IMG/VR virus record: IMGVR_UViG_3300037467_002425
Location: 1 to 55,352 of that record
Strand: one strand, 5' to 3'
Source of the DNA: a virus
Lineage: Duplodnaviria; Caudoviricetes
DNA: 55,352 nt
The translations under genes and the position numbers were made by a program. Positions 2,998 to 23,084 of this stretch are shown here, one piece after another (within the stretch, counting starts at the first letter, position 1; each line of letters starts with the position of its first letter). The notes below the pieces were generated by a model. It did no database searches, was not told where the DNA came from, and saw only the letters and a program-made list of their open reading frames with translations.

Positions 2998-2998
2998 G

Positions 2999-3214: not shown

Positions 3215-3540
3215 ACCTGTAAACCTGTAAACCAACCTGTAAACCGAAAAAGTGTGTTTAAATATATCTAAAAGCAATAAGTTTACAGGTTTACAGGTTT
3301 ACAGGTTGTTTTCTCGCGCTATAGAGAGAAATAAAAAAGTTTTGGTAATTTTAATAAATTATAAAAATGCTTGTGTTCGCGCGTATACGCGCGCGTGAGG
3401 AAAAACGTGTAAACCTGTAAACTTGTGATTAAAAACTGCGAAATTTTATATGCTGGATGGGTTTTTGTGGTTTACATGTTAGGTTTACATGTTGATTTTC
3501 AACCTGTAAACCTGTAAACCTTTTGTACTAAATTTAGTAC
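3215..3540. repeat. Iteron-like 8-bp repeat arrays and palindromes; probable replication origin
   Basis: ACCTGTAA/TTACAGGT arrays at 3215-3245, 3281-3307 (inverted), 3409-3422, 3469-3492 (variant) and 3501-3520. Perfect palindromes CGCGCGTATACGCGCG (3378-3393) and GTACTAAATTTAGTAC (3525-3540). Lies next to the primase-helicase. Confidence 0.75.
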
Positions 3541-3621
3541 GAATGTTAAAGAGCTGGGATTCAAATATACTAATAAAACGATAAAAACAAAATTTATTTT
3601 GAAAGTATACATCAGTTTACT

Positions 3622-3629
3622 TATATTTG
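3622..3629 (+). promoter_or_regulatory. Bacteroidota -7 promoter element
   Basis: TATATTTG 4 nt upstream of ATG 3634. Confidence 0.6.
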
Positions 3630-3633
3630 ATTT

Positions 3634-3882
3634 ATGGAAAATGTAAACTTAATGGCCGGTCAATTATCAGAAAATGACCTGGAACTACTTAAATCATATT
3701 TTATAAGTAGTGATCAGCATCGATGTACTTTTAAATCAATAAAAGAGCAACTTATTCAGAAAGGATTTCCCAAATATTCTGATAATGCTTTAGGTAAAGC
3801 TTTAAAAAGTTATGCCACATCAATAATTATTAAAAGAAATGGTACAACTTATCGTGGTTGGTTTGTAAAGTTTATTGGTTAA
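3634..3882 (+). CDS. Stand-alone winged-helix protein resembling the primase-helicase C-terminus
   Basis: ELLKSYF...SDNALGKALK...KRNGTTYRGWFV aligns by eye with ELLAKHF...NSNTLGKYLK...RKTGKTTIRKYQLV of 859..2997. Confidence 0.65.
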   Translation: MENVNLMAGQLSENDLELLKSYFISSDQHRCTFKSIKEQLIQKGFPKYSDNALGKALKSYATSIIIKRNGTTYRGWFVKFIG

Positions 3883-3904
3883 ATTTGAAATAAAAATAAT
3901 TTTT

Positions 3905-4432
3905 ATGGCAGCACCGGCGGGAAACAGATTTTGGGAATTTAGGTCTAAACATGGTCGAGATAAGCTTTTTTCAGATGCAGAACTGCTTTGGAAGGAATCC
4001 GTTAAATATTTCACCTGGTGTGAAAATAACCCGTTGATTGAAATAGATTATCGAGGTAAAGACGCGGTATTGGTGGAAATTCCAAAAGTGAGAGCATTCA
4101 CAATCAAGGGTTTATGCTTATTTTTACATGTGAATGAAGATTTTATGCTGCAATTTAGAAATACTTGCGCCGGTCGTGACGATCAAGAAAGTAAAGATTT
4201 TTCTCGGGTCATCTCCAACATTTATGATACTATATTCACTCAAAAATTCACCGCCGCCGCAGCAGGATTCCTAAAAGAGAACCTTATTGCACGTGAAACC
4301 GGCCTTGCAGAACGTCAGCAAGTCCACCAGATCAATCAAAATGCTTCAGACTATATCGAGTATACAGAGGTCTCCGATGAAGCCTTAAAAGAGATTAAGA
4401 ATGCAAATAAACGCCTCAAAAGCAATAGCTGA
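3905..4432 (+). CDS. terS: Terminase small subunit (P22 gp3-like)
   Basis: The N-terminus MAAPAGNRFWEFRSKHGR closely matches the P22 gp3 family; directly upstream of TerL. Confidence 0.9.
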   Translation: MAAPAGNRFWEFRSKHGRDKLFSDAELLWKESVKYFTWCENNPLIEIDYRGKDAVLVEIPKVRAFTIKGLCLFLHVNEDFMLQFRNTCAGRDDQESKDFSRVISNIYDTIFTQKFTAAAAGFLKENLIARETGLAERQQVHQINQNASDYIEYTEVSDEALKEIKNANKRLKSNS

Positions 4433-5927
4433 GCTTTGCCGTCGTTCGTTATATGAATTTGTGCAGGAGTTTTGGGATGTGATTATCCCTGAGGATCCGG
4501 TTTGGAACTGGCATATCGAATACATTTGCAATGAAGTGCAGGAAGCAATCATGCGGGTCGTTCGTTTGCCAGAGCGCCCGGCGGTTTTTGAGGGCGTTCG
4601 TTTTATAATGCCAAAAAAGCCACGTGAACAAAAATTATATGACCTGTTGGTCAATGTACCGCCAGGTTCGTTAAAATCAACCATAATCACCGTCATGGCG
4701 CCAGCGTGGGCATGGACTATTGACCAAACCTTGCGCATCATCAGCGCCTCTTATTCAGGCGATTTGAGCCAAGATCATGCCGTTCGTTCCAGGGACATTA
4801 TTCAGTCCGACAAATACAAATTATATTTCCCTGAAGTAGAAATTCGTGCGGACCAGAACAATAAAAACAACTATAAAAACACCATGAACGGGGAACGTTA
4901 TGCTACGTCCGTCGGTGGTACGGTCATGGGTATCCATGCGCATCTTATTATAATAGATGACCCGCTGAACACCAAACAATCTATATCTGAAGCTGATTTG
5001 CCAGCGGCGGCGGCGTTCGTGAATACGACATTATCTACCAGAAAGGTAGATAAGGCCGTAACCCTAACAATCATGGTTATGCAGCGTTTGAATGAATTGG
5101 ACCCGGCGGGGGTATGGCTTCGCCAACGGGACCAGGAAGGTCGCAAGATCAAACATATCTGTTTGCCGGTTCGTTCGTCGCCGAAAGTTTACCCGCCGGA
5201 GTTGGTCCAATACTACCAGGACGGACTATTAGACCCCGTTCGTTTGAACGAAGAAGTGCTGCAGAACGCAAAAATTGAGCTCGGTTCGTACGGGTTTGCC
5301 GGGCAAATGGATCAGGATCCGGCACCGGAGGGCGGCGGCGTATGGCAGAAGTGGTTCGTACCTGTTGCTGACAAAGATATGCCGCCCGTTAGTCAAATGA
5401 AAAATTACGGGACGGACTGGGACACCGCGTATACGGAAAAATTGAAAAACGCGAGTTCGGCGGCGGTTGTTAGCGGGATGTTTGAGGGAAAAATGTATAT
5501 AACCGACGTTCGTTGGTTTCATAAAGAGTTTCCGGACTTAATCAACACGATGAAATTATTCCCGGATCCGCACTATATCGAGGCGAAAGCGTCCGGCAAA
5601 TCAGCCAAGCAAACGCTATTAACCGCCGGTATACCTGCTGTTGAGGTTCAGGTAAACAGTGACAAGCTGGCCCGTGCCCGGGATGCGACACCGAAAGCGG
5701 AGGCCGGTTTAGTGTTCGTTCGTGCCTCAATACTTGAAAAAATCTACTATGACAGCGATCAGGGAATTTTAAAGTTCCCAAACGGGGCCAAACAGGATTT
5801 AGCGGATACGATTGCCCAGGCTATACAGCGGCATTTCGGCAGGCCTGAAAGGAAGTTTGCGGTCGGTTGGAAACGAAAACCGCCGATTGAAAGGGATCAA
5901 CCGGCGGTTAGTTTGATAAATGATTAA
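4401..5927 (+). CDS. terL: Terminase large subunit
   Basis: NVPPGSLKS Walker A, IIIDDP Walker B, MQRL coupling motif, DWDTAY and D..D..Q nuclease residues, IEAKASG. Confidence 0.93.
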   Translation: MQINASKAIAELCRRSLYEFVQEFWDVIIPEDPVWNWHIEYICNEVQEAIMRVVRLPERPAVFEGVRFIMPKKPREQKLYDLLVNVPPGSLKSTIITVMAPAWAWTIDQTLRIISASYSGDLSQDHAVRSRDIIQSDKYKLYFPEVEIRADQNNKNNYKNTMNGERYATSVGGTVMGIHAHLIIIDDPLNTKQSISEADLPAAAAFVNTTLSTRKVDKAVTLTIMVMQRLNELDPAGVWLRQRDQEGRKIKHICLPVRSSPKVYPPELVQYYQDGLLDPVRLNEEVLQNAKIELGSYGFAGQMDQDPAPEGGGVWQKWFVPVADKDMPPVSQMKNYGTDWDTAYTEKLKNASSAAVVSGMFEGKMYITDVRWFHKEFPDLINTMKLFPDPHYIEAKASGKSAKQTLLTAGIPAVEVQVNSDKLARARDATPKAEAGLVFVRASILEKIYYDSDQGILKFPNGAKQDLADTIAQAIQRHFGRPERKFAVGWKRKPPIERDQPAVSLIND

Positions 5928-7982: not shown

Positions 7983-8196
7983 GTGTTTTGTTGCAAAAGT
8001 TATCAACATTTTTAATTTAATTTGTTGATAATCAAAGAAGTAATATCTCAAAGGATCCATTAAAACAAAAAGGACAAACTTGTAAAATTGCCCGGCGCAG
8101 ACCCCATCTACAAAAATATTTGAGCAAAAACCGGCTCTTATGGAAATTATTTTTATTATATTTACAGCCTTAGCAGGAACGAAGTTCTTCATGTTG

Positions 8197-8235
8197 AAAA
8201 AGACCGCCGGAACATAAGGATTTCGGCGGTTTTTA
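8197..8235. terminator. Intrinsic terminator-like hairpin (possibly bidirectional)
   Basis: GACCGCCGGAA...TTTCGGCGGTT flanked by A and T tracts. Confidence 0.5.
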
Positions 8236-8347
8236 TTATATTTGTATTTTATGAAGGAATCCCGAGCGCCTTGGAAGCAAACAGACTCGGGTCCTTTATC
8301 TAAAATTTCCCGGAAAAATTTTTTCACCTATATGCGAAACTAATTTT

Positions 8348-8355
8348 TATATTTG
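8348..8355 (+). promoter_or_regulatory. Bacteroidota -7 promoter element of the portal gene
   Basis: TATATTTG 5 nt upstream of ATG 8361. Confidence 0.55.
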
Positions 8356-8360
8356 TTTTC

Positions 8361-9815
8361 ATGGGATTAATCGATTTCTTTTTCGGAAAGGCTATCAGTA
8401 AAAGAGTTACCGAACAAGTGTCGGGAATCACAGTTAACCAATTCAACCAAAACCTTAATCAACTGCTCAACAACGTCCAGGTTACCATCAACGCTAACCA
8501 GTATGATTACACCGTAAGGGGTTTTGAACAAGTAGGCGCAGTGTATGAATGCGTCGATCTGATTGTCAAGAAATTCGTTGCATGTCCATGGATTATCTAC
8601 CGTGTCAAAAATGTAAAAGAGTACAAAAAATACTTGCAACTATCTGAAAATGCCGACACTTTAGGCCCTGCCCTCCTTGCTAAAGCAAAAGCCCTGGAAG
8701 AAGTATCACACCAACAAATTGAAAAACTCCTGGAAAATCCGAACTCGGAAACGGAGGGAGATGACTTTTGGGAACTGCAGGCCGCGCTTCTCTTACTTCG
8801 CGGTAATGCGTACATCTATGGAAATGCTGGCAATGACCAGGACCGTGCTGCTGGCCGCTGGTCCGAGCTCTGGGGAGTACCCTCTGACATGACAATCACC
8901 GCCGGACAATCCTTTATGGATCCAATCATCTCTTATCAGATGACCAATTATTTGCAAAACCAAAAATTCCCCGCCAATCAAATTAAACATATCAAAACAC
9001 TAAACCCCCGCTACGATCCGGCTGGCTCTCAACGTTTTGGTATCCCGCCACTCAGAGCGTATCTGTACTCTATGGATATCCTGCGGAATACGGACAGAGA
9101 AGCGGATAAACAGGTAAAGAACGGTGGTACGATAGGTCTGCTGAACCCGGAGAATAAAGAGGATGTATGGGAAGAAACGCAGATAGCCCAAACCGGGCAG
9201 TCTCTTAAAGATGCGTATAACTCAACGGATAAACTGGACCGGATCGTACCGGTTGCTATTCCGTTGAAATGGACCCAAATAGGTCTTCCGATCGCCGACC
9301 TAAAATTACTTGAATTGTCAGACGCTAAGGCAGACGATATTTACCGTGGGTTTCACGTTCCCCTTCAGTTCAGAAATCAGGATACCGCAACATACAATAA
9401 CCTCCCGGTTGCCAACCGACAACTCGCTTATAATGCCATTGCGCCGATATGTCGGAAATTCTCAAAAGGTGTAACCTCATTCATTTGCAAACCGTACAAT
9501 ACCAGCCAGGCGACTTATATCGTGGAGAAAGACTTTCTGGGCTTACCGGAACTTAATGATGATATGAAAACGGTGGCGGAATGGCTAGATAAATCATGGG
9601 ATCTGACACCGAATGAAAAACGCGAGGTGAAGCGTTGGGGACGTAGCTCCGAGCCTGGTATGGACCAGATATGGGTACCGATCACCATTACACCGATGAA
9701 AGATATTCTCGACGGAAAGGTGCAGCAGGGTAGTGCGCACGTCCAGGTATCATCCGGACCACAGCAACCGCCTGCTGCGCCTAAAAGCTATTTTGAAAGT
9801 TTGAAAGAAGATTAA
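8361..9815 (+). CDS. Portal protein (HK97-like)
   Basis: VYECVDLI, LLENPN, LLLRGNAYIY, IKHIK..NP, RFGIPPL, IYRGFHVP, TYNN and LTPNEKR are portal signature segments. Confidence 0.92.
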   Translation: MGLIDFFFGKAISKRVTEQVSGITVNQFNQNLNQLLNNVQVTINANQYDYTVRGFEQVGAVYECVDLIVKKFVACPWIIYRVKNVKEYKKYLQLSENADTLGPALLAKAKALEEVSHQQIEKLLENPNSETEGDDFWELQAALLLLRGNAYIYGNAGNDQDRAAGRWSELWGVPSDMTITAGQSFMDPIISYQMTNYLQNQKFPANQIKHIKTLNPRYDPAGSQRFGIPPLRAYLYSMDILRNTDREADKQVKNGGTIGLLNPENKEDVWEETQIAQTGQSLKDAYNSTDKLDRIVPVAIPLKWTQIGLPIADLKLLELSDAKADDIYRGFHVPLQFRNQDTATYNNLPVANRQLAYNAIAPICRKFSKGVTSFICKPYNTSQATYIVEKDFLGLPELNDDMKTVAEWLDKSWDLTPNEKREVKRWGRSSEPGMDQIWVPITITPMKDILDGKVQQGSAHVQVSSGPQQPPAAPKSYFESLKED

Positions 9816-10033
9816 GAAGCCTTAATTGAATCAGGACTGATAATTATTGTATCACCTGAGTCTAAGGCTTCTATATTACATTTAGCTACGTCAAGACCCT
9901 CCAAATGAGTTTTTCTACGTACTTCTCTGAGTTTTAAAAGTCCGCTTCTGATTTGAAGAAATAAATCCACTTGTTCCCCGTGTGGTAATTTGTCAAATTC
10001 GGACAAGATACTGTCTACTAATTTTTGTTCCAT
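9812..10033 (-). CDS. Hypothetical protein, last gene of the glycosylation operon
   Basis: 73 aa ORF directly downstream of the GT gene. Confidence 0.6.
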   Translation of the reverse strand: MEQKLVDSILSEFDKLPHGEQVDLFLQIRSGLLKLREVRRKTHLEGLDVAKCNIEALDSGDTIIISPDSIKAS

Positions 10034-10037
10034 ATTT

Positions 10038-10583
10038 TTAAGTTATTAAATGTTTACATTCAGTTTTCGGATGATTGCTCCAAAGCCTATAGCTATGAAA
10101 TACATAAATGCCTTTCATTAATCCAACTTTAAAACCCATTTTCCGGGCCTCGAAGTCAAATAACCGGTCAAAGGCAAGCGATTCTTCGACAAAGCCACCT
10201 ACTACCTCCCAAACGTGTAATCGGAAACATAATAGGAAACCTGCCATTACACCCCGTGCGCCTACAACCATCGGCCCGGCGTTCTTCCAGCATTCCTGCG
10301 CTATCCGGATATGTTCCCTGATCCGGTCATCTTCATTGAAACGACCGCCGACAAGCTGTTCAGGTGACCGCAGGCGGTTGGTCATACAACCTAATACGTC
10401 ATATTCCGTCGTATACAAAATTTCCTCTACATGCGCCTTAGTGTCTGGTAATAGCCACATCATATCATGATCTGTAAGGCACAACCAATCATCCAGGAAA
10501 GGGCAAATTTGCTCTATAGCATCATTAATCGCTTTGCCAATATTTTTATCAGCGCGGTAGGGCTGTATGTAGTGAACACGCAT
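10038..10583 (-). CDS. GT-A fold glycosyltransferase (GT2-like)
   Basis: KNIGKAIN, LCLTDHD DxD motif, VGGFVE, GIYVFH. Confidence 0.8.
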   Translation of the reverse strand: MRVHYIQPYRADKNIGKAINDAIEQICPFLDDWLCLTDHDMMWLLPDTKAHVEEILYTTEYDVLGCMTNRLRSPEQLVGGRFNEDDRIREHIRIAQECWKNAGPMVVGARGVMAGFLLCFRLHVWEVVGGFVEESLAFDRLFDFEARKMGFKVGLMKGIYVFHSYRLWSNHPKTECKHLIT

Positions 10584-11582
10584 TTAATCTCTGTTAATGA
10601 ACCTGAACCACGTTAAAATAGCGGTATGGTTATAGGTAGCTAAGTCCTGGATATTATCCTCTACCAATTCTACTTTTCTTTTGATCACGTAGTCGAGGAC
10701 TTCTGCGATATGGCTTTCAGATGTAGGGTTTGCTTTCCTACAATTCAACCAGTTGATTTCTTTGCTCACTACTACCGGAACATGCGCTGCAATACAGTCT
10801 GCGGTTACGATATTAAACGTTTCTGTAAAACTCACTTGCATACAAGCGTCCATTTTAGCAATCAACTGGATAAAATCACTATGATCCAGCCAATCGATTT
10901 CAATAAGCTTGTGGCGAGTGCCAGAGAATAACGCCCGGATATTTTTTAATACGCTGTCCCCACGCTGCTCAACACGTGTTGAGTTAATATAGAAATGAAC
11001 GGAAGCGCGATGACTTTCTGCAAACATGATTGCCGCCATTGCTTGCGCTAACTGGTTTTTAAGGGGACGCACAGCACCGAAACAACCGATTCGGTAAAAA
11101 GTACGCCTTTTTTCTATTTCGCTACAGCCCACGTAACGAATATTAGGGTAAATGTTGGGTAAATAAGTATTTTGTATACCGATCTGAGCAAAATCACTGC
11201 TTGTATCCACCGAGTTAAAAGAAACAATAGCTTCTTTGGCATATTCACGGATCCATTCAATAGCGTTTCCTTCCATGGCTAAAAAAGGTGTTTTACTATG
11301 TATCCTTACCACAAAACGAATATGCGGGTATAAACCGATCAGTTCCCGGAGTTTGGCAGGAGTAACCCAAATCGCTTCAATGATACAGATTTGGGGTTTT
11401 ATTTTATAAAGAAACTTATCAATACTATTCCCGTCTATGCAAAATTCGAGGGACGCTTCCACCCCTGCGAATTGGTTAATTGCGTCTATAACAAAGCGAG
11501 CAGAGTTTCTCAAACCGGATTTTGAGGGTAAAATACTGTCACCATACTCTGAGGTGGCTTTTACCAGGAATAATATTTTCAT
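10584..11582 (-). CDS. GT-B fold glycosyltransferase (GT4-like)
   Basis: IGCFGAVRPLKNQ and QVSFTETFNIVTADCIAAHVPVVVS, the E-x7-E/D-type C-terminal motif. Confidence 0.8.
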   Translation of the reverse strand: MKILFLVKATSEYGDSILPSKSGLRNSARFVIDAINQFAGVEASLEFCIDGNSIDKFLYKIKPQICIIEAIWVTPAKLRELIGLYPHIRFVVRIHSKTPFLAMEGNAIEWIREYAKEAIVSFNSVDTSSDFAQIGIQNTYLPNIYPNIRYVGCSEIEKRRTFYRIGCFGAVRPLKNQLAQAMAAIMFAESHRASVHFYINSTRVEQRGDSVLKNIRALFSGTRHKLIEIDWLDHSDFIQLIAKMDACMQVSFTETFNIVTADCIAAHVPVVVSKEINWLNCRKANPTSESHIAEVLDYVIKRKVELVEDNIQDLATYNHTAILTWFRFINRD

Positions 11583-12244
11583 TGTTTTTCGATTATTAAT
11601 TTACTTACCCACGAGTTTAAAAGTTCACAGTTAGGAAGAACGCAATGCCCACCTATTTTACCTTCGCTATGTTTCAGAATATATTTTTTAAATTGAGGCA
11701 TTCCAAGCAATGCGTATCCGGAGTTATAAGTAGCATTTGCCAAGGTGTACACCGTATCAAAATTAAGATTATTTTCAGTACAAAACCGGTGTATTTCTTT
11801 TTCCAGTAAAATATTTAATCCGTAAATTGTGGTATCCCATAATTTCATGGCTTCAACCGATTCTGAATCGAGAAAACAAGCTACTTTGATATTGTATACA
11901 GCAAAAAACTTAGATGCTTTTTCAGCCTCCACACCACCAAAAAATTTAACGAAAGTGCGTATTCCTTTTTCAAGGTAGGGATGTACGCCCCGGCAGGGAG
12001 ATGATACCGCATTAAGTATTTTACAAGTACCAATCGGAACGGTAGAATGGATGATAGTAAGTTCAGCACGGTGTTTAACCTGGTAATTTTTTACCGTTTC
12101 GATGAATAAACCATTGTAAGGAATACAGATATGAAGGATTTCATAATTGCCGTCGGTTCCTTCTTTATCGGCTCCATCACATTCCAGGATAGATTGAATG
12201 GCCCGGCCTATTTCACCAAGGCCAATAACAAGATGTTTATTCAT
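11579..12244 (-). CDS. UDP-glucose/GDP-mannose dehydrogenase family protein (short form)
   Basis: VIGLGEIG Rossmann motif, IIHSTVPIGT, EAMKL catalytic Lys, GKIGGHCV catalytic Cys. Confidence 0.82.
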   Translation of the reverse strand: MNKHLVIGLGEIGRAIQSILECDGADKEGTDGNYEILHICIPYNGLFIETVKNYQVKHRAELTIIHSTVPIGTCKILNAVSSPCRGVHPYLEKGIRTFVKFFGGVEAEKASKFFAVYNIKVACFLDSESVEAMKLWDTTIYGLNILLEKEIHRFCTENNLNFDTVYTLANATYNSGYALLGMPQFKKYILKHSEGKIGGHCVLPNCELLNSWVSKLIIEKQ

Positions 12245-12858
12245 CGTATAAAAATTATATTTTCAGCGTTTTCAAGTACACTTACAAGGCCAAAGTTACG
12301 GCAGTAACCTTTGTAGGCATCTATTAAGTTTTTGTTACTATTGTGTTCGATGATCAGGCATTTACAATCTACGGCCGCAAGATCGATCTGTTCCAAGATA
12401 TCCAGGTCATAGCCTTCCGCGTCAATGGAAATAAAGTCTAATTGAGCAAAATCAGTCATTTCCCACAGGAAGGCAAATGGAACGACATTCACTTTTATTT
12501 TGTGGAAATCGACATTCGACCAACGCTGTGTTTCGTTGAAGTTCAATGTTGATACCAGGGCTTTATCTATACCGTTTGGAACATGAGCGCCAGACTCATA
12601 AAAATCAACAATTCCTTGTTCTATGCCAACGGCTACATTATAGCATTGTACTTTTTCATTGTATAGATAAAGCCGTTTCAGGTCATAGAAAACGCTCGAG
12701 GGCTCAACTAAATGTGCTGAAAATCCATTCTCAATAAGTAAACGAGCATTTGAAAAATCTAAACCATTATTTTCGCCTATTGATAATAAAGTACCTTTAA
12801 AATCACCAAAATAGTTTTTTATGAATAAGTCTTCCTGATTCTGAGAAAATGATTTCAT
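12241..12858 (-). CDS. FkbM family SAM-dependent methyltransferase
   Basis: SQNQED start, LSIGENNG, LVEP, FISIDAEG, IIEH. Confidence 0.88.
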   Translation of the reverse strand: MKSFSQNQEDLFIKNYFGDFKGTLLSIGENNGLDFSNARLLIENGFSAHLVEPSSVFYDLKRLYLYNEKVQCYNVAVGIEQGIVDFYESGAHVPNGIDKALVSTLNFNETQRWSNVDFHKIKVNVVPFAFLWEMTDFAQLDFISIDAEGYDLDILEQIDLAAVDCKCLIIEHNSNKNLIDAYKGYCRNFGLVSVLENAENIIFIR

Positions 12859-13583
12859 ATAATTTGTTTATTTAAATGTCTTGTTCTATTGTTTATTCCT
12901 GTTTCAAAAAGACCTTTAGCTAATCCAGTTTTAACGGCATGTTTCATATTTTCATTGGCAGTGACCCATTCCAAATTATACAGTGATAGGTTCATTCGAT
13001 TGCCATCTTTATGATTAATATAAGGTTTATTATAAGGGTTAGGAATAAAATGTAATGCTACCAATCTGTATAGATAAAATAATTTTGTTGTATTATTTTT
13101 CCATAATCTGATCGCAATACATTTATTAGCTATAGAATATGTCCAAGCTACTTTATCAGAAGTTTTTATATTAAGTACTATTCCTTTTTTATTTATTACA
13201 TATGAAGGGTAATCTGTTATAGGTACAAAAAATTTCTCTCTTACTTTATGTATTTGAAAAACTGTTTTTAAGATTAAGTTATTTTTATTGTTATTTAAAA
13301 TATTACCATCTTTGTGTACTATAAATAAATTTTCTGGGATTAAACTTTTAAAAGTTATATAAACTAAGTAGTCAATTTTATACTCTTTTCTATTTTTACC
13401 TTTGCCTATAGCTATTTGAGGTCCTACACCAACAATTCTACTTTTTAATATTAAATTAGGTTTTGAAAAAGGAACTTTTTTACCATTTTTAGCGTTAACT
13501 ATTCTCGGTAATGACTTTACTCTACCAAAAGATGAAACTGCATAGTTGCTATCAAAAGGCAATATTTTCCAAATTTCTTTCAT
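12855..13583 (-). CDS. NUMOD4-HNH homing endonuclease (duplicated NUMOD4/HNH units)
   Basis: EIWK..YAVSSFGRVKS; HKDGN...N and INHKDGNRMN..NLEWVT; strongly AT-rich. Confidence 0.88.
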   Translation of the reverse strand: MKEIWKILPFDSNYAVSSFGRVKSLPRIVNAKNGKKVPFSKPNLILKSRIVGVGPQIAIGKGKNRKEYKIDYLVYITFKSLIPENLFIVHKDGNILNNNKNNLILKTVFQIHKVREKFFVPITDYPSYVINKKGIVLNIKTSDKVAWTYSIANKCIAIRLWKNNTTKLFYLYRLVALHFIPNPYNKPYINHKDGNRMNLSLYNLEWVTANENMKHAVKTGLAKGLFETGINNRTRHLNKQII

Positions 13584-14809
13584 GATATCCCATCCGCGAG
13601 TAAAACAGTTTGTTCAGTTATTGTTGGTTCATCATCTTTACCGTATACAAAAAACGTATTTCCTGGTTGCAATTTCAATCCCATTTTATAAGCGATCAAT
13701 GATGCGGCGCTTTGATCGTGGCGATAAATATCCCAGGAGCCATTGAACATACCGTCACGCATAGCCTGGGTCCATTGATCAAAGAATTTATAGCCTATTT
13801 CACTATCCAGATCAAGCCCAAGCACTCCTGAGCTCAGCATGGGGCCTTCATCCGTACCAAAATAAGCTAGTGCTTCAGCATGTGTCCAGCGAGAGTTCAG
13901 CCAGCCACTATCCTGGAAAAAATATCCATCCCGTTCAATGATCTCAAATATCACGTCAATGTTCTTTATTGCCCGCATGGAAGCATCCAGCCAAAGTATT
14001 TGCCGATACCCGGCTTCGTAAGCTTTGATCATGGCCATAGGTTTAAAGCTGTAATTCATCTCCGCATGCGGTGCAGCACCTACTTCTTCCTCACTTTCAA
14101 AAAGAAGTACTGTAGCGTTTGTATTGTTGCGTAAACTGGTTGCCAAACGCTTCTGGCCCTTACGATATTTATCAGTAGATACGTTTACAATACATCTGCT
14201 GATTACTTTTTTATGATTCGGGTTGGTCCAGTAAGGATTATCTTCCGTAGATGCCTCTGTTATTTTCGGGTCGAAGTTATATTTGAACAAAACCTTATCG
14301 ATAAAATGTTCTGTACGGACTACTGATAAACATTCCTGTACAAAAGCCCAGTCCTCGCCATAACTGATATCAGGAAAAGAACATCCAAGCACTTTATGGG
14401 TATTCCAGGCGCAGTTTGGGAAAGGAGGTCTTTTACAGTCCAGGTATTTACCGTCCTTGGTATTATGTTCAACCTCGTTACCTAGTTGCTGCGTAATGAT
14501 AAAACTGGATCCGTCAGGATTGGTACACTGTGCTTTGAAATCGATCACGTCAACATCCAGGAAAGTAGCTTCATAGATTTCGTCTAAGGAGACAAACTCA
14601 TCATCCGAATCACAGAACAAAAAGAATTTACCTTGTACCAAAGATTTAGCAGCTTCACGTTTCGCACCGATAGTTCGTTTTCGGTTATCGAAAATCATCA
14701 CCAGTTCAATTTCACGATCACCGATCATAGCAAGCAAATTTCTATAAAGCTCCATGGACATTTCTGCCCTGGATTCCGTAGTGATGATTAAAACAGATAA
14801 CTGTATCAT
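13580..14809 (-). CDS. Two-domain glycosyltransferase (GT2 fused to a second GT-A domain)
   Basis: N-terminal domain TIGAKR..FCDSDD..FPDISYGED; C-terminal domain FKP....WLDAS...RHDQS. Confidence 0.85.
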   Translation of the reverse strand: MIQLSVLIITTESRAEMSMELYRNLLAMIGDREIELVMIFDNRKRTIGAKREAAKSLVQGKFFLFCDSDDEFVSLDEIYEATFLDVDVIDFKAQCTNPDGSSFIITQQLGNEVEHNTKDGKYLDCKRPPFPNCAWNTHKVLGCSFPDISYGEDWAFVQECLSVVRTEHFIDKVLFKYNFDPKITEASTEDNPYWTNPNHKKVISRCIVNVSTDKYRKGQKRLATSLRNNTNATVLLFESEEEVGAAPHAEMNYSFKPMAMIKAYEAGYRQILWLDASMRAIKNIDVIFEIIERDGYFFQDSGWLNSRWTHAEALAYFGTDEGPMLSSGVLGLDLDSEIGYKFFDQWTQAMRDGMFNGSWDIYRHDQSAASLIAYKMGLKLQPGNTFFVYGKDDEPTITEQTVLLADGIS

Positions 14810-15348
14810 TTTTTCGTTCTGTAATCGTAATGGTAAATAGGTTCTGATATTAATACTTCGGTTTTAAGTAAGGGAAGCAGTCGCATAGAATACTCAAAAT
14901 CTTCGGCGAATTTAACTTCGGGGAATCCTGCCTGTAAAGCTAATTCACGTTTAACCGGGGATATATGGTTTGGTGTACGGTAATAAGTATTGCCTCTTAA
15001 AAACCAACGTCCATACTCTTTAGAAATAAACCATTGTTGAGAATTTTTACCATTAGTTGTTAAAATACCGTTTATGCCAATACAATCCGGGTTACTTTGT
15101 GTGGCCCGGATAATCAGTTCTATATAATTAGCAGGCACATGATCGTCCGAGTCTATAAAAACGATATATTCTCCTGAAGCCCTGGCCAAAAGATCATTTC
15201 GCTTTTTACCGATGCAATTGGTTTCATGGTAATCTAGCAATATTTCTACTTGCTCAGTAGCTTGTTCCTGCAAACCACGTAGTAATTCATAGGTCATTTC
15301 TTGCCGTTCCATAGTACTAGCAATCAAAATACTGAGCTTTATCTCCAT
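14806..15348 (-). CDS. GT2 glycosyltransferase
   Basis: LSILI, IGKKRN, FIDSDD, FPEVKFAED. Confidence 0.88.
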   Translation of the reverse strand: MEIKLSILIASTMERQEMTYELLRGLQEQATEQVEILLDYHETNCIGKKRNDLLARASGEYIVFIDSDDHVPANYIELIIRATQSNPDCIGINGILTTNGKNSQQWFISKEYGRWFLRGNTYYRTPNHISPVKRELALQAGFPEVKFAEDFEYSMRLLPLLKTEVLISEPIYHYDYRTKK

Positions 15349-15851
15349 GTTTTGTTATTTATAATACGTGAAATATTAGCTTGAGTAGTGTTATATTTCT
15401 TAGCAATTGAACGTTGAGTAAGATTTTTAATAGTTCTTATTTCTTCAACTTGATCTTGGTTTAAACATGCGTTCGCCCTGTGATTTTTAGAAAAATTTTT
15501 TAACCCAGTTTTATGTGCATGTATTTCGTTTTCACTTACTGTACACCACTCTAAATTTGAAACAGCATTATTACTTTTATCACCATCTATATGATTTACA
15601 ATTGGCTTATTATTTGGATTCGGTAAAAATGTTAAAGCTACAAGTCTATGCAAAAGGTAACGTTTCATTAATCCATCTTTTTGACTGCCTAGAGCGAATG
15701 AAAAGTATCCTGATTTAGAAATATTTGGCTTTAGTAATTTTTGTCTTTTAAAAGTACCATGTCTACTTTTAAAAATTAAAGAATACACATTTCCTAGATT
15801 AGATATTGCATATTCTTTCTCATATCCGGGTAGTGGTTTAATTATCTCCAT
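15339..15851 (-). CDS. NUMOD4-HNH homing endonuclease
   Basis: YAISNLGNVYS, LHRLVA, VNHIDGDKSNNAVSNLEW, C-terminal HTH. Confidence 0.9.
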   Translation of the reverse strand: MEIIKPLPGYEKEYAISNLGNVYSLIFKSRHGTFKRQKLLKPNISKSGYFSFALGSQKDGLMKRYLLHRLVALTFLPNPNNKPIVNHIDGDKSNNAVSNLEWCTVSENEIHAHKTGLKNFSKNHRANACLNQDQVEEIRTIKNLTQRSIAKKYNTTQANISRIINNKTWR

Positions 15852-16516
15852 TTTATATCAGAATAAGCCATTATTGGTTCCGTAATTCCAAAATTTGTTT
15901 TTAATCTTTCGTTAAATAAGTTTTCACCTTGCTTCCAAGTCAAATCGTTCTTGACATTGATCTCATCTTTTGGTGATTTTCCAGTACTATAGTGCAAGTG
16001 TTCAAACTTCAAAGGCAATTTTATATATTTACCAGTCATCAACGCTACAGCAGTTAATTCCTGATCGCAAAACATGTGAGAATAGCCATTGTAGTATACA
16101 TATCCGTACCGTTCATAATACGTCCGGTCCATTATTGGCATAGTGATGAGTGTAGGCTGTAAGCCATCATCAGTTTTCGCACAGAAATCAGATTTACCTT
16201 CAAGGGCTTCAAGAAGTAGCGTGTCCCAGTTTTCAGGGCAATCTGTGTCATCAGAGATAATAACAAATAAATCACCAGTAGCTATTTTGGCACCCTCATT
16301 AATAGCTTCAATAGCTGATTTGTTAGGACGTAAGCAGATTGAAATTATACTATCTTCATAAAAAAATTCACGATAATATTCTTCACAAGCGTCTTCGTCC
16401 CAACATAAAATATACTCAATTTCATTTTTTAAATCAGATTTTCCCCTCCAATTCCAAAAAGTATCATAAGCTTGTTTAGCTCTGTTTCGTGAAGGGAATA
16501 TTACAGATATTTTCAT
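15842..16516 (-). CDS. GT2 glycosyltransferase
   Basis: ISVIFPSRNR, AINEG, IISDD, MFCDQE, FEHLH. Confidence 0.85.
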   Translation of the reverse strand: MKISVIFPSRNRAKQAYDTFWNWRGKSDLKNEIEYILCWDEDACEEYYREFFYEDSIISICLRPNKSAIEAINEGAKIATGDLFVIISDDTDCPENWDTLLLEALEGKSDFCAKTDDGLQPTLITMPIMDRTYYERYGYVYYNGYSHMFCDQELTAVALMTGKYIKLPLKFEHLHYSTGKSPKDEINVKNDLTWKQGENLFNERLKTNFGITEPIMAYSDIKWR

Positions 16517-17175
16517 TTATAAGGTATAAATTGATTACTTAATTTTGTTTCTTCCCAGTATTTTTTATTGGCCCGAATTGCTTTACTACGTTCATAAGGA
16601 TCAAATGATGACTGAGCCGTATTTTCTTCATCGTGTGAATAAAATAATCCTTTTGAATGTGGAATATCAATGTAAGGTGCAGGGGTCATATTCATATTAA
16701 AAATTCGCCTGGATAGTTCTGCATGCTCATAGCAGTTTTTGAAATTGGTATCAAAACCTCCTGCTTTTTCAATACAATGCTTAGTAAAATAAAGTAGACA
16801 ACCCCGCGGCAAATCGTAAGCTTTATAATCAGGTTCTTTCCATAATAATTTTCTATTAAAAATATAACAAGCATGCTGCAAGTTACTATGAGTATACCAA
16901 GTAGCCCAATGAGCATCTAAAGCATATACATCTTCATCTGCTAAAAATATGTGATCCGCGTTTTCAGCTAATTGCAAACACATATTTTTAGCGGTTGATA
17001 TACCTACATTATTTTCAAATCTGTAATCAGCATCTGGGTAAGGTGGATTTGAAGCGTCGTCAACTATAAAAATATCGCAATTAGCGGGAGCAAGTTTTTG
17101 CCATTGCTCAATACTATGTTTAGCAATTTCAGGACGATTATGAACAGTGATACAAAGAGCTATACGTGTTTCCAT
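16513..17175 (-). CDS. GT2 glycosyltransferase
   Basis: ITVHNR, IVDDAS, NVGISTAKN, FLADED, GGFD, YEHAELS. Confidence 0.9.
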   Translation of the reverse strand: METRIALCITVHNRPEIAKHSIEQWQKLAPANCDIFIVDDASNPPYPDADYRFENNVGISTAKNMCLQLAENADHIFLADEDVYALDAHWATWYTHSNLQHACYIFNRKLLWKEPDYKAYDLPRGCLLYFTKHCIEKAGGFDTNFKNCYEHAELSRRIFNMNMTPAPYIDIPHSKGLFYSHDEENTAQSSFDPYERSKAIRANKKYWEETKLSNQFIPYK

Positions 17176-17693
17176 GTCTGCCCCCGTTTGATCGCATAAA
17201 TAGTTACTTTGTTAACACCGTGTTCTTTTGCGATATGAGCGCCAGGAACACCTTCTTTTAGTTGTCTTTTTATTTTTTCTACTTTGATTTCATTTAATTT
17301 AGAACATTTCGGTTTTTCACTTCCTTTAGCAGTATTCATTATTCCTAAAGAAAGTCCATGAATAGTATTTTCAGAAGAAGTAACCCATTCAAGATTTGAT
17401 GCGTAATTATTTATTTTTATGCCATCTTTATGATTAACTTCTGTTTTATCTTCAGATTTTTCACAAAAATGTAAAGCGACTATTCTATGTAATTGATGAG
17501 ATTTTGCTTTTCCATCTTTACACATAGTAAACCCGCAATATCTGAATTTTTGTTTTGGAGGGCTTATTTTTAAAATACGATCATCAGGAGAAGCACCACT
17601 ACCTTTTCTTCCTAAAGATTTAATTCGGCCAAAATTAGAAACTTGATAAAGTCCTTCATAGCCAACCACATCTTTCCAAATTTCTTGTTCCAT
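17160..17693 (-). CDS. NUMOD4-HNH homing endonuclease
   Basis: EIWKDVVGYEGLYQVSNFGRIKS, HRIVA, VNHKDG...NLEWVT, C-terminal HTH. Confidence 0.92.
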   Translation of the reverse strand: MEQEIWKDVVGYEGLYQVSNFGRIKSLGRKGSGASPDDRILKISPPKQKFRYCGFTMCKDGKAKSHQLHRIVALHFCEKSEDKTEVNHKDGIKINNYASNLEWVTSSENTIHGLSLGIMNTAKGSEKPKCSKLNEIKVEKIKRQLKEGVPGAHIAKEHGVNKVTIYAIKRGQTWKHV

Positions 17694-17932
17694 CAGTTTG
17701 AACTTCTTATTACGTCAGGCATCATCATTTTCGGATTAACCTTAAAATAATTAATGATCAGTGATTGTAATTTCTCAGCGTCAAAATCCGAGAAATCACC
17801 GTTAGTAACAATATCCAGTTGTATCATACCTTCAAACCGCTTGTTGATCTGCTCAAACGTATCAGGGTTAAATTCATTTTTGAATTCGACCTTAACGGCT
17901 ACACCTGTGATTGAAAATTTTCTTAAAGGCAT
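17693..17932 (-). CDS. Hypothetical protein
   Basis: 79 aa ORF coupled to both neighbours. Confidence 0.65.
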   Translation of the reverse strand: MPLRKFSITGVAVKVEFKNEFNPDTFEQINKRFEGMIQLDIVTNGDFSDFDAEKLQSLIINYFKVNPKMMMPDVIRSSN

Positions 17933-18114
17933 TATTTTTTTATAATATGATTATATAATTCCTGACTAACTTGACCGCTTTCATCTTTTGAGATACCTTC
18001 GGTAATATATTTTCGGGCGAGATTTGATTCTGACCGCCCCTGCTTTTTTACCTGGGCTTTGAACTTTTCAATGCCCTCATCCGATAATATAACTTGAATA
18101 CGATTTTTCTTCAT
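17932..18114 (-). CDS. Ribbon-helix-helix (CopG/Arc-like) regulator heading the glycosylation operon
   Basis: RIQVIL beta strand, then helix, GRSESNLARKYI. Start reassigned to ATG 18114. Confidence 0.8.
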   Translation of the reverse strand: MKKNRIQVILSDEGIEKFKAQVKKQGRSESNLARKYITEGISKDESGQVSQELYNHIIKK

Positions 18115-18120
18115 ATTACT

Positions 18121-18143
18121 CAAAGGTACTATTAAGTACTATT
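18121..18143 (-). promoter_or_regulatory. Promoter -7 element with an overlapping tandem-repeat operator
   Basis: TACCTTTG (minus, 18121-18128). GTACTATT occurs at 18126-18133 and 18136-18143. Confidence 0.55.
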
Positions 18144-18194
18144 CATTACAAGTATTTTGCAAAATAATTTTTTTAATTAAGTTACTTTTATGCC

Positions 18195-18323
18195 ATGAGT
18201 GACAAAAACCAGAAGGAACAAATCGAAAAGCTAGAAAAGCTTAAAGAGAAAAACCTGCCTGAAAACGTCCAGAAATCAATCGCGGAGAAGCAAAAGCACA
18301 TTCAGAAGCCTTTCAACAAATGA
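18195..18323 (+). CDS. Small Lys/Gln-rich protein (42 aa)
   Basis: Manual ORF MSDKNQKEQIEKLEKLKEKNLPENVQKSIAEKQKHIQKPFNK; ATGA-coupled to the protease gene. Confidence 0.6.
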   Translation: MSDKNQKEQIEKLEKLKEKNLPENVQKSIAEKQKHIQKPFNK

Positions 18324-19156
18324 GTAAAATCTATTGCAAAGAACTTGATAAGAAATTTTTATCCAAGGATGAAATGTTTTTTGCATTGAAGGCAAATGTG
18401 GATAAAATCATCTCGATCAAGAAAGCAGCCATCAAAGATAGTGATGGTGTTTCTTTTCAGTTTCGTGAAAATGTTGAAAATGTTACTAAAGCTGCACCAG
18501 CCGAAACTTTAAAAGCAGTAAAAGATGGAGATACTATTTATCCGGTCATCAATACCACAAACTGGCTGGACAGTCACGGAGATGTTCACCTGGACGGTAT
18601 CTGGGATACCTCAATAGCTCAGCAACAAGGTAAAATATTTTATGCAGTTAATCATGAATTAAAACTCGGTTCTATCATCAGTTATCAAGATGAAGTGACC
18701 ATGAGTGTTAAAACAATGAACTGGACCGATCTTGGAGAAAATTATCCTGGTCAAACTCAGGCATTAATTTTTGCGGCTAAATTGACTGATGCTTCTAATA
18801 AAGCAGCTACAAAGGCTATCAAAGCACAAAAACCACTGGAAAATAGCGTTCGTATGCAATATGTGGATATGGTTTTATGTGTAGACAGCTCCGCCAAAGG
18901 TCTTGAACAGGAAAGGATGAATTTTTACACATACCTACCCAAGATCGCCAATAAAGAAGATGCTACGGCCGCAGGATATTTCTGGGCTATCAAGCAAGCT
19001 AAAATTGTTAAAGAAGGAAGCGCGGTACTCGCAGGATCCAACCGCGTTACACCTATTTTATATACTGACCCGTCTAACAAACAGTCAACCAAAGAAACCG
19101 AACCGCCCGCAAACAGCAGCACTGAGGTTAAATCAGATTATTTTTATGAACTTTAA
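18320..19156 (+). CDS. Prohead maturation protease (HK97-like, divergent)
   Basis: DSHGDVH, NHE, SVRMQY, EGSAV..GSN motifs; directly upstream of the capsid gene. Confidence 0.72.
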   Translation: MSKIYCKELDKKFLSKDEMFFALKANVDKIISIKKAAIKDSDGVSFQFRENVENVTKAAPAETLKAVKDGDTIYPVINTTNWLDSHGDVHLDGIWDTSIAQQQGKIFYAVNHELKLGSIISYQDEVTMSVKTMNWTDLGENYPGQTQALIFAAKLTDASNKAATKAIKAQKPLENSVRMQYVDMVLCVDSSAKGLEQERMNFYTYLPKIANKEDATAAGYFWAIKQAKIVKEGSAVLAGSNRVTPILYTDPSNKQSTKETEPPANSSTEVKSDYFYEL

Positions 19157-19168
19157 AAACAACCCAAA

Positions 19169-20464
19169 ATGAAATTTGAGTATTTAACCAAAGCGCAATT
19201 CGATGCTCTTACTGATTATCAGAAAGAGAAATACGCTGATGATAAGCGTAACCACGAAATGAAGGAAACGCAGGAAGCCGCTAAAGTAGCCGCTGAAACT
19301 GCTGCGGACGAAAAAGTCAAAGTAGTTAAGGAAGAACTGACAAAAACAATCGAAGCCCAAAAAGTTGAGATTGATGCATTAACAGTTAAAATTGACGAAA
19401 CTGACAAAAAACGTGAAGCTGTTGAGGCTAAGATGGAGCGTATCCAGGCCAAGCAAAAAGAAGCTGAGATTTCAGGCTTGAAAGCTGAGATAACTGAAAT
19501 GTTCACTAATAAAGAAAGTGAAGGCTACAAACAGCTCGCCGGGTTTAAAACCAAAAAATCTTTCAATGTAGAATTGGAAGGCAAAGGCTTATTGGCCGAA
19601 AAAGCACCTGGGGTGATCGGAGTGCCTTCAGGTACTACCGCACAGCAATGGTTACAGCCTATCGGTATTCCGCATGAAACTGTGCAGGCCCGTGATATTA
19701 TTCCAGTGTACCCAACTGAGTTTCCATCTATCAACTATGTTCAGTTCACTAAAAAGGACGGTAGCATTGCTTCCGTTGCTGCAGGTGCAACTAAACCACA
19801 ATTTGATTATACACCTACCGGGAAATTGGCACCAGTTATCAAAATCGCTGGTTGGGTGAGCGTTCAGGAAGAATTTCTGGATGATGTTGTAGGTTCTGGT
19901 GCATTTTTAGCTCAGGAATTACCATGGGCGTATAAAGATGAAGAAACTCGTCAAGTATTTAAAGGTAACGGTACATCTGAACTGAATGGTTTATTTGCAA
20001 ATGTGGCGACTGCATTGAATTTTGCAGGTTTTGAAACCGCAGGCTCGGATTCGAATAACTGGGACAAAATCGTAGTTGGTTTGACTAACTCACGCCGTAG
20101 CTTACGTCCAGGCGATGCTATCTGGGTTTCCCCTGAGGCTTATGCTGAACTTTTGATGAACAAATCAGAAGGTGCAACCCAGGAATATGATTACCCAATC
20201 CAAGCTACTACCGCTGGTCAGTTGGCTATCGGGGGTATTCCGATTTACTTCCATACTGTATTTAATGCATTGGAAGGTTTATCTGGTAACTTTAGTCGTG
20301 GTGTAGCATTGTGGCAACGTAAAGGTATTACCTTACGTACTTCGACCGAAGCTGATCAGAACTTCTTCAAGAACTTAGTAACATTCTTAATTGAAGCACG
20401 TATGGCAATGACTCCTTTCTTTCCTGAGTCATTCAAAAAGATCGACTTTACCCGTACTACTTAA
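19169..20464 (+). CDS. Major capsid protein (HK97 fold, N-terminal coiled-coil delta domain)
   Basis: Charged helical N-terminus; KIAGW..V..E.LDD, GNGTS.LNG, F.KNLVT...E.R motifs. Confidence 0.92.
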   Translation: MKFEYLTKAQFDALTDYQKEKYADDKRNHEMKETQEAAKVAAETAADEKVKVVKEELTKTIEAQKVEIDALTVKIDETDKKREAVEAKMERIQAKQKEAEISGLKAEITEMFTNKESEGYKQLAGFKTKKSFNVELEGKGLLAEKAPGVIGVPSGTTAQQWLQPIGIPHETVQARDIIPVYPTEFPSINYVQFTKKDGSIASVAAGATKPQFDYTPTGKLAPVIKIAGWVSVQEEFLDDVVGSGAFLAQELPWAYKDEETRQVFKGNGTSELNGLFANVATALNFAGFETAGSDSNNWDKIVVGLTNSRRSLRPGDAIWVSPEAYAELLMNKSEGATQEYDYPIQATTAGQLAIGGIPIYFHTVFNALEGLSGNFSRGVALWQRKGITLRTSTEADQNFFKNLVTFLIEARMAMTPFFPESFKKIDFTRTT

Positions 20465-22610: not shown

Positions 22611-23084
22611 TTGATACCAGGGAGATTAATCGGATTAAAAGTTAACGGCATATTTATAAGCTGTGAGTTATCTTGTGATTTTAATTTTCAGGCCGAAATG
22701 CTTCCTGCGTCCGCTATCGACAGCGCAGCTTGGAAAGAATTTATCGCAGGTATCCGTTCCTGGTCTATGGGGGTAAGTGGTCAACTATTAGCCGAGGCAG
22801 TAGGTGCTGATTTCAAAACTATTCTTAATTCATTTTTTACACGAATACCTGTTTTAGTGATCTGGGGCACCAGACCATCAGCTACAACACAATTAAGTAT
22901 GTCAGGGAGTGCTTTAGTATCCGGGGGAAGTGCTACAGGACCAAATAAAGGTGCGGCGACTTATACTATAACTTTTCAGGGGACTGGGCCTTTAACAACT
23001 AATTTTGAGGATTATTCACTCATTATCGATGCGATGGAACCTCGTGATGATTGGCCAATTATAGTTAATGAGAATGTAACATAA
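22611..23084 (+). CDS. Tail tube protein paralog 1
   Basis: WKEFIAGIRSWSMGVSG and ATYTITFQGTGPL, a TP901-1-like tube signature; TTG start. Confidence 0.78.
   Translation: MIPGRLIGLKVNGIFISCELSCDFNFQAEMLPASAIDSAAWKEFIAGIRSWSMGVSGQLLAEAVGADFKTILNSFFTRIPVLVIWGTRPSATTQLSMSGSALVSGGSATGPNKGAATYTITFQGTGPLTTNFEDYSLIIDAMEPRDDWPIIVNENVT

Follow-up and report, generated by a model that had tools for sequence, protein, structure and literature searches.

Sequence-based indications of a virion glycosylation cassette within the head module of an uncultured, probably Bacteroidota-infecting phage

What is a large set of glycosyltransferase (GT) genes doing, on the opposite strand, in the midst of the genes from which a tailed phage builds its head? 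The question is raised by IMG/VR record IMGVR_UViG_3300037467_002425, analysed here over its whole length of 55,352 bp (the window), a complete virus record with direct terminal repeats and a completeness rating of 100%. In this genome, 14 minus-strand open reading frames (ORFs) fill positions 9812-18123 (8,312 bp) between the portal gene and the genes for a 278-aa protein and the capsid. An earlier reading of the DNA letters (hereafter, the original prediction) had described an 8.3 kb antisense glycan synthesis operon at 9812-18143, a description that holds for the block with its end at 18123, and had proposed that its product decorates a cytoplasmic protein, the virion, in preference to lipopolysaccharide (LPS) or DNA. 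We consider it probable that the block serves to glycosylate the virion, in the way known from mycobacteriophages, and predict as acceptors the threonines with which the capsid and tail-tube proteins end. A virion target is suggested by three lines of evidence, which thereby support the original proposal: homology of the GTs to those of mycobacteriophage loci, a position among the head genes that is kept in relatives, and co-variation of the GTs with C-terminal Thr or Ser.

Six genes of the block encode GTs, with seven GT domains among them, and on this count, obtained from Pfam, PHROGs and a model of the two-domain protein, the original prediction was right. GT180 (14806-15348) and GT224 (15842-16516) are GT2-type GT-A enzymes, both of which exceed the Pfam cut-off for PF00535 (E = 1.3e-7 and 3e-9, respectively) and match PHROG families (phrog_14775, E = 7e-32, and phrog_14945, E = 7e-16). 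GT220 (16513-17175), likewise a GT-A enzyme, matches phrog_1579 (E = 1.5e-46) and, below the cut-off, PF00535 (E = 1e-3). GT181 (10038-10583) is a compact, GT-A-like GT with a DxD motif (phrog_14179, E = 5e-44), in which D38-x-D40 and H163/Y165/R166 are invariant across 13 homologues; it had no match in Pfam and 0 matches in a profile search of PDB. GT4_332 (10584-11582) is a probable GT-B enzyme of GT4/GT1-like type, with matches below the Pfam cut-off to Glyco_trans_1_4 (PF13692; E = 2e-4, 21.9 bits against a cut-off of 27) and GT4-conflict (E = 6e-4), a best PDB profile match of only E = 0.18, and atlas feature matches of 0.98 to clusters that are 100% PF00534; its family comprises 1,072 cluster representatives at E <= 1e-3. 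The largest of the six, GT409 (13580-14809; model pLDDT 91), had 0 matches among PDB sequences, and its model combines a GT2-type GT-A domain (residues 1-193), a paralogue of GT180 with TarP, WrtF and TarS as best structural matches (Z 16.8-17.5), and a GT6-like GT-A domain (residues 199-409) that matches BoGT6a (Z 15.2) and A64R of the chlorovirus PBCV-1 (2p73; Z 14.6, root-mean-square deviation 3.3 over 177 aligned residues at 12% identity, tied with GT6 enzymes).

Several of these enzymes have relatives in phages of Mycobacterium. GT220 aligns with the N-terminal half of Taj gp107 (residues 19-245) at 37% identity (E = 7e-40), and 565 of the 605 phage records that it retrieved by tblastn, at approximately 37% identity, were Mycobacterium phages. 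Identity to Taj gp107 extends over the full length (464-469 aligned columns) of two-domain GT220-family proteins, at 39% for that of locus L019 (E = 3e-101) and 44% for that of a Chitinophaga prophage (L053/L179; E = 3e-131). GT180 is 32% identical to residues 6-183 of Che8 gp108 (E = 1e-25), the N-terminal domain of which is also matched by that of GT409 (E = 1e-13). Taj gp107 and Che8 gp108 hold the same position in their genomes, which have identical capsid and tail-tube termini; in Che8 and Taj, both proteins close on a short shared ending (..TGS and ..DGS). The prophage protein of L053/L179, a 483-aa GT at 2220-3671 (+), stands out in its own right, its identity to Taj gp107 being unusually high for a comparison across host phyla.

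The mycobacteriophage systems give this kinship its meaning. Excerpts of the published accounts state that Che8 glycosylates its own capsid and tail tube with its own GTs (PMC12363180; for the capsid, also PMC11256854), that mycobacteriophage glycans are found at the C-termini of capsid and tail-tube proteins (PMC12619734) and, in papers citing this work, that virion glycosylation shields mycobacteriophage particles from antibodies. Like the Che8 and Taj loci, the block of the window encodes soluble GTs without a membrane partner, its GT genes are accompanied by HNH genes (an HNH gene flanks the GT genes of Che8 and Taj), and the capsid and tube proteins of the same genome share a short C-terminal motif of hydroxy amino acids. 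The differences lie in the host (probably Bacteroidota, whereas Che8 and Taj infect Actinobacteria), in location (antisense inside the head module, rather than at the right end of the genome), in gene content (seven GT domains, a methyltransferase and a mini-dehydrogenase, compared with two or three annotated GT genes) and in the termini (Thr-Thr, not Gly-Ser). PBCV-1 offers a second comparison, at the level of the fold only: both GT409 and A64R are virus-encoded cytoplasmic GT-A enzymes, and A64R acts on the capsid protein of its own virus, which is a eukaryotic one. The glycans of PBCV-1 are N-linked at internal sites and contain methylated sugars. To our knowledge, a virion glycan coat of the type considered here has so far been measured only in mycobacteriophages, in which loci for virion O-glycosylation (Che8 gp108-110; cluster F relatives such as Taj gp107/gp109; Corndog; Myrna) were reportedly described by Freeman et al. 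in Cell Host Microbe in 2023.

Relatives of the phage were gathered by capsid-based searches of viral and metagenome contigs and are referred to here by locus number; a first scan of genome contigs, made with the alignment of close capsids only, yielded no relative. The closest (L002-L006 and L018) have capsids 74-95% identical to that of the window, and many more distant relatives were also recovered. In all five of the close relatives that cover the interval (L002-L006), portal and capsid genes are separated by a GT cassette on the opposite strand, so the synteny with head genes to which the original prediction had drawn attention is kept. The content of individual gene slots varies: the place of the window's dehydrogenase-like gene DH221 is taken by a GT-D-like gene (PF22882) in L005 and L006, and the C-terminal domain of GT409 is encoded by a separate gene (215-238 aa) in L002-L004. 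GT181 and the GT220 family, which in relatives often has two domains (438-484 aa), are the most widely conserved genes of the cassette and recur far outside the clade. In distant relatives they occupy the portal-capsid interval, in one orientation or the other, or else immediately follow the capsid gene.

The third line of evidence concerns the last residues of the proteins that would be modified. In the window, the HK97-fold major capsid protein (19169-20464, +; PF05065, E = 5e-18) ends in ...DFTRTT and the tail-tube paralogue TTP153 (23424-23885, +; phrog_1407, E = 7.5e-7) in ...NRTT, both thus closing on Arg-Thr-Thr, and a second tail-tube paralogue, TTP157 (22611-23084, +; PF06199, E = 4e-6; phrog_1407), ends in ...NVT, with Val-Thr at this end in all six genomes of the clade (window included). 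Genome-wide, Thr ends 9 of the 81 ORFs and Thr-Thr 3. All fetched loci were searched with local profiles built for the GT families, capsid, tube and portal proteins of the window, which gave 77 distinct capsid rows: 24 GT-positive, 24 GT-negative with the whole portal-capsid interval visible, and 29 with truncated context, which were set aside. Every GT-positive capsid ends in Thr or Ser (22 and 2, respectively; 17 end in Thr-Thr), compared with one GT-negative capsid in Thr (L058), two in Ser (L077 and L078) and none in Thr-Thr. Among the rows set aside, 17 end in ..GNVA or ..FGNV and 7 in Thr-Thr.

This association was also examined on a tree of capsids stripped of their last 12 residues; the GT label needs 6 changes on this tree, which contains 6 independent pairs. 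In 5.7 of these 6 pairs, terminal Thr/Ser accompanies the GTs, and in none is the relation reversed (median sign-test P = 0.031); for Thr-Thr considered alone, the test does not reach significance (median P = 0.125). GT-positive lineages enclose three GT-negative ones, each with a capsid that ends in Ala (L030, beside L034; L043, beside L044; and L013, beside the L010 group). The tail tube behaves similarly: TTP153-like proteins end in Thr-Thr in all 17 GT-positive loci in which one was found, and none of 8 tube-like proteins of 150-165 aa from GT-negative loci ends in Thr (for example, that of L030 has ...PVTP versus ...PVTT). Bacterial genomes and metagenome-assembled genomes supplied a further, independent set of 80 loci, in which these GTs were found in L106 and L179 only, both with capsids that end in Thr-Thr, an ending shared by one capsid of the other 78 loci (L128, with its context cut off). 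L179, a prophage of Chitinophaga eiseniae DSM 22224, encodes GT181 and a GT resembling Taj gp107, and its capsid closes on ..GATT. Finally, Pfam was run on 150 ORFs of 15 representative GT-negative loci plus L066, and no GT family was detected in the 15; L066, the capsid of which ends in ...VPTT and which the GT profiles had missed, yielded GT_PLOD and a methyltransferase, so that in this instance the Thr-Thr rule predicted a GT that the profiles had overlooked. The shared Arg-Thr-Thr and the Thr/Ser that tracks the GTs are what the sequences offer in favour of the capsid and tail-tube C-termini as acceptors. A different ending was noticed in L086, where capsid and tail tube both close on ...V-T-G, and in the capsid of L093, with no GT found nearby; this terminus, reminiscent of the ..GS pair of Che8 and Taj, may mark another modification system.

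If the block does serve virion glycosylation, its soluble enzymes would act in the host cytoplasm, late in infection and on host nucleotide sugars, to build an O-linked oligosaccharide on the terminal threonines of the capsid (...TRTT) and the tubes (...NRTT and ...NVT). Chain synthesis would be started by the core pair of GT181 and the Taj-gp107-like GT220, and GT180, the two-domain GT409, GT224 and the GT4-like enzyme would extend it, with one sugar probably O-methylated by the FkbM enzyme and another possible contribution from DH221, which may oxidise a sugar. Dependence on the host for precursors would be in keeping with Pfam scans of the genome, in which no nucleotidyltransferase, epimerase or other enzyme making nucleoside diphosphate sugars was found; the block is therefore not self-contained, as the original prediction had called it. 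Attachment of the glycan, the residue modified, the order of the enzymes, the types of sugar and the timing are all inferred in this scheme, and the benefit to the phage would presumably be shielding, stability or adhesion.

A number of observations weigh against this interpretation. The co-variation rests on only 6 independent contrasts, and 29 of the 77 capsid rows were set aside, 7 of them ending in Thr-Thr with GT status undecided. Capsids that end in Ser-Thr (L058) or Val-Ser (L077 and L078) occur without a recognised GT, L058 carrying an FkbM gene behind its capsid gene. Distant GT-negative relatives are also Thr-rich at the tail (for example, ...STATA in L011 and ...LTVPA in L013), which confines the difference to the final one or two residues. 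The mycobacteriophage termini are Gly-Ser rather than Thr-Thr, which means that acceptor recognition is not simply transferable to the window, and GT181 has no detectable kinship to Che8 gp110 or Taj gp109 (matches of its profile to these two and to the PLOD-type GT of L066 were not significant, with the DxD region alone aligned). TarP and TarS, to which the modelled N-terminal domain of GT409 is structurally most similar, modify host wall teichoic acid. Furthermore, all evidence for glycosylation on this or related phages is sequence-based.

The similarity to TarP and TarS leads to one alternative, in which the enzymes modify an envelope glycopolymer of the host (LPS, capsule or another lipid-linked precursor) at its cytoplasmic face and so block superinfection or alter the surface, in the manner of the prophage enzyme TarP or of the Gtr seroconversion systems. 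This would agree with the structural matches of the GT409 N-terminal domain (best to TarP, TarS and RmlT, Z 16-17.5), with NCBIfam matches of GT180 and GT224 to GTs of lipid-linked glycans, weak and far below the cut-off, and with GH43 and beta-helix domains in the tail, which indicate that the host is probably polysaccharide-coated. It accounts neither for the location in the head module nor for the tracking of the last residues of capsid and tube, and we regard it as quite unlikely. No ORF of the block contains a transmembrane segment (none has a hydrophobic segment of 19 residues), the most found in any protein of the genome being three (a 129-aa protein of the lysis region and, with three weak ones, the tape measure), and a six-frame search of the window returned 0 matches to GtrA (PF04138). 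Seroconversion is, moreover, typical of temperate phages, whereas general Pfam and PHROGs scans of the window gave no integrase-family match and family scans of the genome no repressor module or lysogeny genes. Another possibility, which we judge very improbable, is that the GTs act on phage DNA, producing hypermodified bases that resist restriction. The known routes to DNA glycosylation require a hydroxylated base, which a TET/JBP enzyme can make as an alternative to a thymidylate-synthase homologue. In an excerpt of PMC13326640, multi-enzyme phage GT clusters are described that build glycans on DNA bases, the route to glycosylated 5-hydroxycytosine starting from a thymidylate-synthase homologue. 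The window does encode a C5-cytosine methylase and a Dam methylase, and about half of its small ORFs have no family, which leaves room for an unrecognised hydroxylase. Six-frame searches, however, returned 0 matches at E <= 1 to either the thymidylate-synthase family (PF00303), which was detected in the control genomes, or TET/JBP (PF12851), which never rose above the cut-off there. Both absences noted in the original prediction, of a membrane partner and of a base hydroxylase, were thus borne out by these searches. A DNA target also fails to predict any co-variation with protein termini, and the cassette sits among head genes rather than in the replication module.

The glycan might also be placed on proteins but away from the ends of capsid and tube, on tail fibres, on further virion proteins or on proteins of the host, with Thr-Thr retained for some other purpose such as assembly; this is, in our view, unlikely. 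Virion proteins of other kinds, homologous to head-completion and tail-terminator proteins, end in Thr-Thr in the GT-positive loci L010, L015 and L017, and the Thr-rich tails kept by GT-negative relatives can be counted on the same side. Replacement of the last Thr/Ser by Ala or Pro in the three separate nested GT-negative lineages, with a parallel change in the L030 tube, speaks against it, as does the excerpt of PMC12619734 that places mycobacteriophage glycans at the C-termini of the same two proteins.

Virion glycosylation at the capsid and tail-tube ends, which we continue to favour, can be extended to a broader and much more tentative proposal: that a Thr-Thr (or Thr/Ser) C-terminus is a portable, encoded tag read by the GT181 and GT220 core across hosts, perhaps with DH221 oxidising the protein-bound glycan instead of a UDP-sugar. 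If this were true, sequence alone would suffice to predict, across tailed phages, whether a virion is glycosylated and where. This genome and its relatives indicate the use of homologous GTs in an uncultured, probably Bacteroidota, phage lineage and in other lineages. A rule that links the GT pair to Thr-Thr at the ends of capsid and tail tube would reveal glycosylated virions in metagenomes. For glyco-engineering of phage particles or carrier proteins it would offer a compact tag as acceptor, together with few enzymes, and it bears on how stable and adhesive phages are and how they are recognised by the immune system, in ecology as in phage therapy. How such cassettes diversify is shown by the homing endonucleases scattered through them and by their swappable gene slots. 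A search of one literature collection found no description of virion glycosylation in a Bacteroidota phage or of a C-terminal threonine acceptor, in agreement with the original prediction, which knew of no such description for phages of this phylum.

Two further enzymes of the block may act on the glycan. The FkbM-family methyltransferase (12241-12858; PF05050, E = 1.8e-13, 51.4 bits against a cut-off of 22.7; TIGR01444, E = 4e-9), which had been recognised from the start, is conserved in L002-L006, L015 and L017, and its presence makes O-methylation of the glycan plausible. The gene beside it encodes DH221 (11579-12244; model pLDDT 95), a 221-aa protein resembling UDP-sugar 6-dehydrogenases, for which sequence searches gave weak matches only, to PF00984 (E = 0.006) and TIGR03026 (E = 4e-4), neither of which reached the cut-off. 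Its model comprises the NAD-binding and central helical domains of UDP-glucose and UDP-N-acetylmannosamine (UDP-ManNAc) 6-dehydrogenases (PF03721, PF00984, PF03720; 4r16, 3pjg, 1dli) with Foldseek TMq values of 0.75-0.80 (best matches 4r16 and 3pjg; E = 5e-10, TMq 0.77), and stops after the central domain, with TMt merely 0.42-0.47 against targets of 377-418 residues. Like those enzymes, DH221 keeps GxGxxG, a STVPxGT-like stretch and GGHC, the last of which we take to be the position of the catalytic Cys in UDP-sugar dehydrogenases; GxGxxG and GGHC are invariant in 30 homologues. Unlike them (approximately 390-450 aa), it is without the defining C-terminal UDP-binding domain (PF03720), so the nucleotide-sugar dehydrogenase of the original prediction stands for its NAD-binding and central domains and falls for its UDP-binding one. 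DH221 is also absent from L002-L006, which leaves the window as its sole carrier among the six close relatives, and for these two reasons a uronic acid in the glycan, as had been claimed, is not established.

The homologues of DH221 suggest a setting for it. A search that covered protein lengths of 121-387 aa assigned 1,125 proteins to the family at E <= 1e-3, and those among the 120 matches listed measure 216-258 aa. Of 27 viral loci examined, 19 encode a GT or an enzyme of nucleotide-sugar metabolism no more than 2 genes from the DH221 homologue, with a capsid or adaptor gene equally near in some, and from these neighbours we conclude that DH221 is a sugar-pathway enzyme of phage glycosylation cassettes. 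Mini UDP-sugar-dehydrogenase-like proteins of this family (approximately 220-245 aa, with no UDP-binding domain) are widespread in viral contigs (among them loci L188-L267), where 298 relatives were counted.

The remaining genes of the block include five that the original inventory had missed: three HNH genes and two small ORFs. The HNH genes encode a 242-aa protein with two NUMOD4/HNH modules in tandem (12855-13583; HNH_3 in 2 stretches, E = 9.5e-14; phrog_59, E = 5e-42), a protein with NUMOD4, HNH_3 and helix-turn-helix domains (15339-15851; Pfam and PHROGs) and one with NUMOD4 and HNH_3 (17160-17693; Pfam and PHROGs), together 1,776 bp or 21% of the block. They are free-standing homing endonucleases, invaders of the cassette that stand outside the glycan pathway. 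The slot at 15339-15851 is filled in L002 and L004 and empty in L003, L005 and L006, and L010 has an HNH gene at the same place as that at 17160-17693, a patchwork of filled and empty slots as expected of mobile homing genes. The idea that an HNH gene has split a GT gene was rejected, as GT180 and GT224 each span the whole profile of their PHROG family. Five HNH genes are present in the 55-kb genome as a whole, two of them outside the block (38666-39151 and 46981-47421); among the five, one lies between two beta-helix tail genes and one directly before the DNA polymerase gene.

Neighbouring ORFs of the block overlap (most by 1-16 nt) or lie at most 4 nt apart, a tight packing that fits a single, translationally coupled operon, and GC content drops to 0.32-0.34 in places, compared with 0.39 for the genome. 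The first gene encodes a ribbon-helix-helix (RHH; Arc/CopG-like) DNA-binding protein (17932-18123; PF07878, E = 4e-6; phrog_3431), as originally predicted. RHH homologues were found in L003, L015 and L016, and RHH-like ORFs of less than 60 aa were seen by eye in L002 and L006; across relatives, the first gene of the block is an RHH gene or encodes another small protein. A 14-bp palindrome, TATTTTGCAAAATA (18153-18166), was considered as the RHH operator and rejected: it was matched in 14 of 100 shuffles and is absent from the spacer of seven relatives. A scan for sigma-70 promoters and terminators over 8000-19500 gave counts not above those of shuffled sequence, with a consensus that is not applicable to Bacteroidota, and a candidate -7 element of Bacteroidota type (TAnnTTTG) at 18121-18128 runs into the TTG codon with which the RHH ORF begins. 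The two small ORFs have no family in Pfam, PHROGs or NCBIfam. One, of 79 aa (17693-17932), is conserved in L002 (94% identical) and in L003, L005 and L006 (50-58%); the other, of 73 aa (9812-10033), is the last gene of the block, and L002, L004 and L006 each carry a homologue there (42-55% identity).

The block is bounded on one side by the portal gene (8361-9815, +; PF04860, E = 2.3e-36; phrog_12), which converges on the last ORF of the block and, at its stop, overlaps it by 4 nt. On the other side, the original prediction had named protease and capsid genes; portal and capsid were identified correctly, and the supposed protease is a 278-aa head-module protein (18320-19156, +) with no match in Pfam, PHROGs, NCBIfam or, by profile, PDB, which could be a protease or a scaffold by position alone. 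Its gene lies directly 5' of the capsid gene, an arrangement found in all relatives. A 42-aa ORF (MSDKNQKEQIEKLEKL...; 18196-18324, +) overlaps the start of this gene, and since the same frame precedes the 278-aa gene in L002-L006, L018 and L015, it is probably a real small gene of the head module.

Pfam and PHROGs scans of the window's ORFs gave a siphovirus layout, with small and large terminase genes (3875-5927) and, further downstream of the capsid gene, connector proteins, the two tail-tube paralogues, a 1,298-aa tape measure and an M15 endolysin; the replication module is spread over both strands. Proteins of the tail region with GH43 and right-handed beta-helix domains (33865-35928, 37491-38552 and 39156-40199, all +) are probably depolymerases directed against host surface polysaccharide. 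A search of a phage collection for near-identical DNA returned no match, and tblastn of the capsid against named phages gave matches of 24-27% identity to phages of many hosts, uninformative on host and synteny. The host is probably a member of the Bacteroidota, on lines of evidence that are weak: a low use of Shine-Dalgarno sequences (the core lies upstream of 8 of 81 ORFs, with a background of 7.8%), BT4734-like and DUF3874 domains in the primase, and a Chitinophaga eiseniae prophage that is a distant relative by its capsid gene and carries the same GT pair.

Other gene blocks were noted at comparable places in relatives without GTs. The GT-negative relative L011/L030 has an antisense block directly after its capsid gene, the first gene of which (9967-11043, -; 358 aa) is adenylosuccinate-synthetase-like (PF00709, E = 7.5e-37) and might encode a PurZ-type enzyme of 2-aminoadenine DNA synthesis. 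FkbM or Methyltransf_23 genes, flanked by ORFs without a family and with no recognised GT, lie just behind the capsid or neck genes in L058 (10424-11059), L100 (11071-12144), L069 (13543-14166) and L078 (12894-13517), and these regions may represent other virion-modifying cassettes or contain unrecognised GTs.

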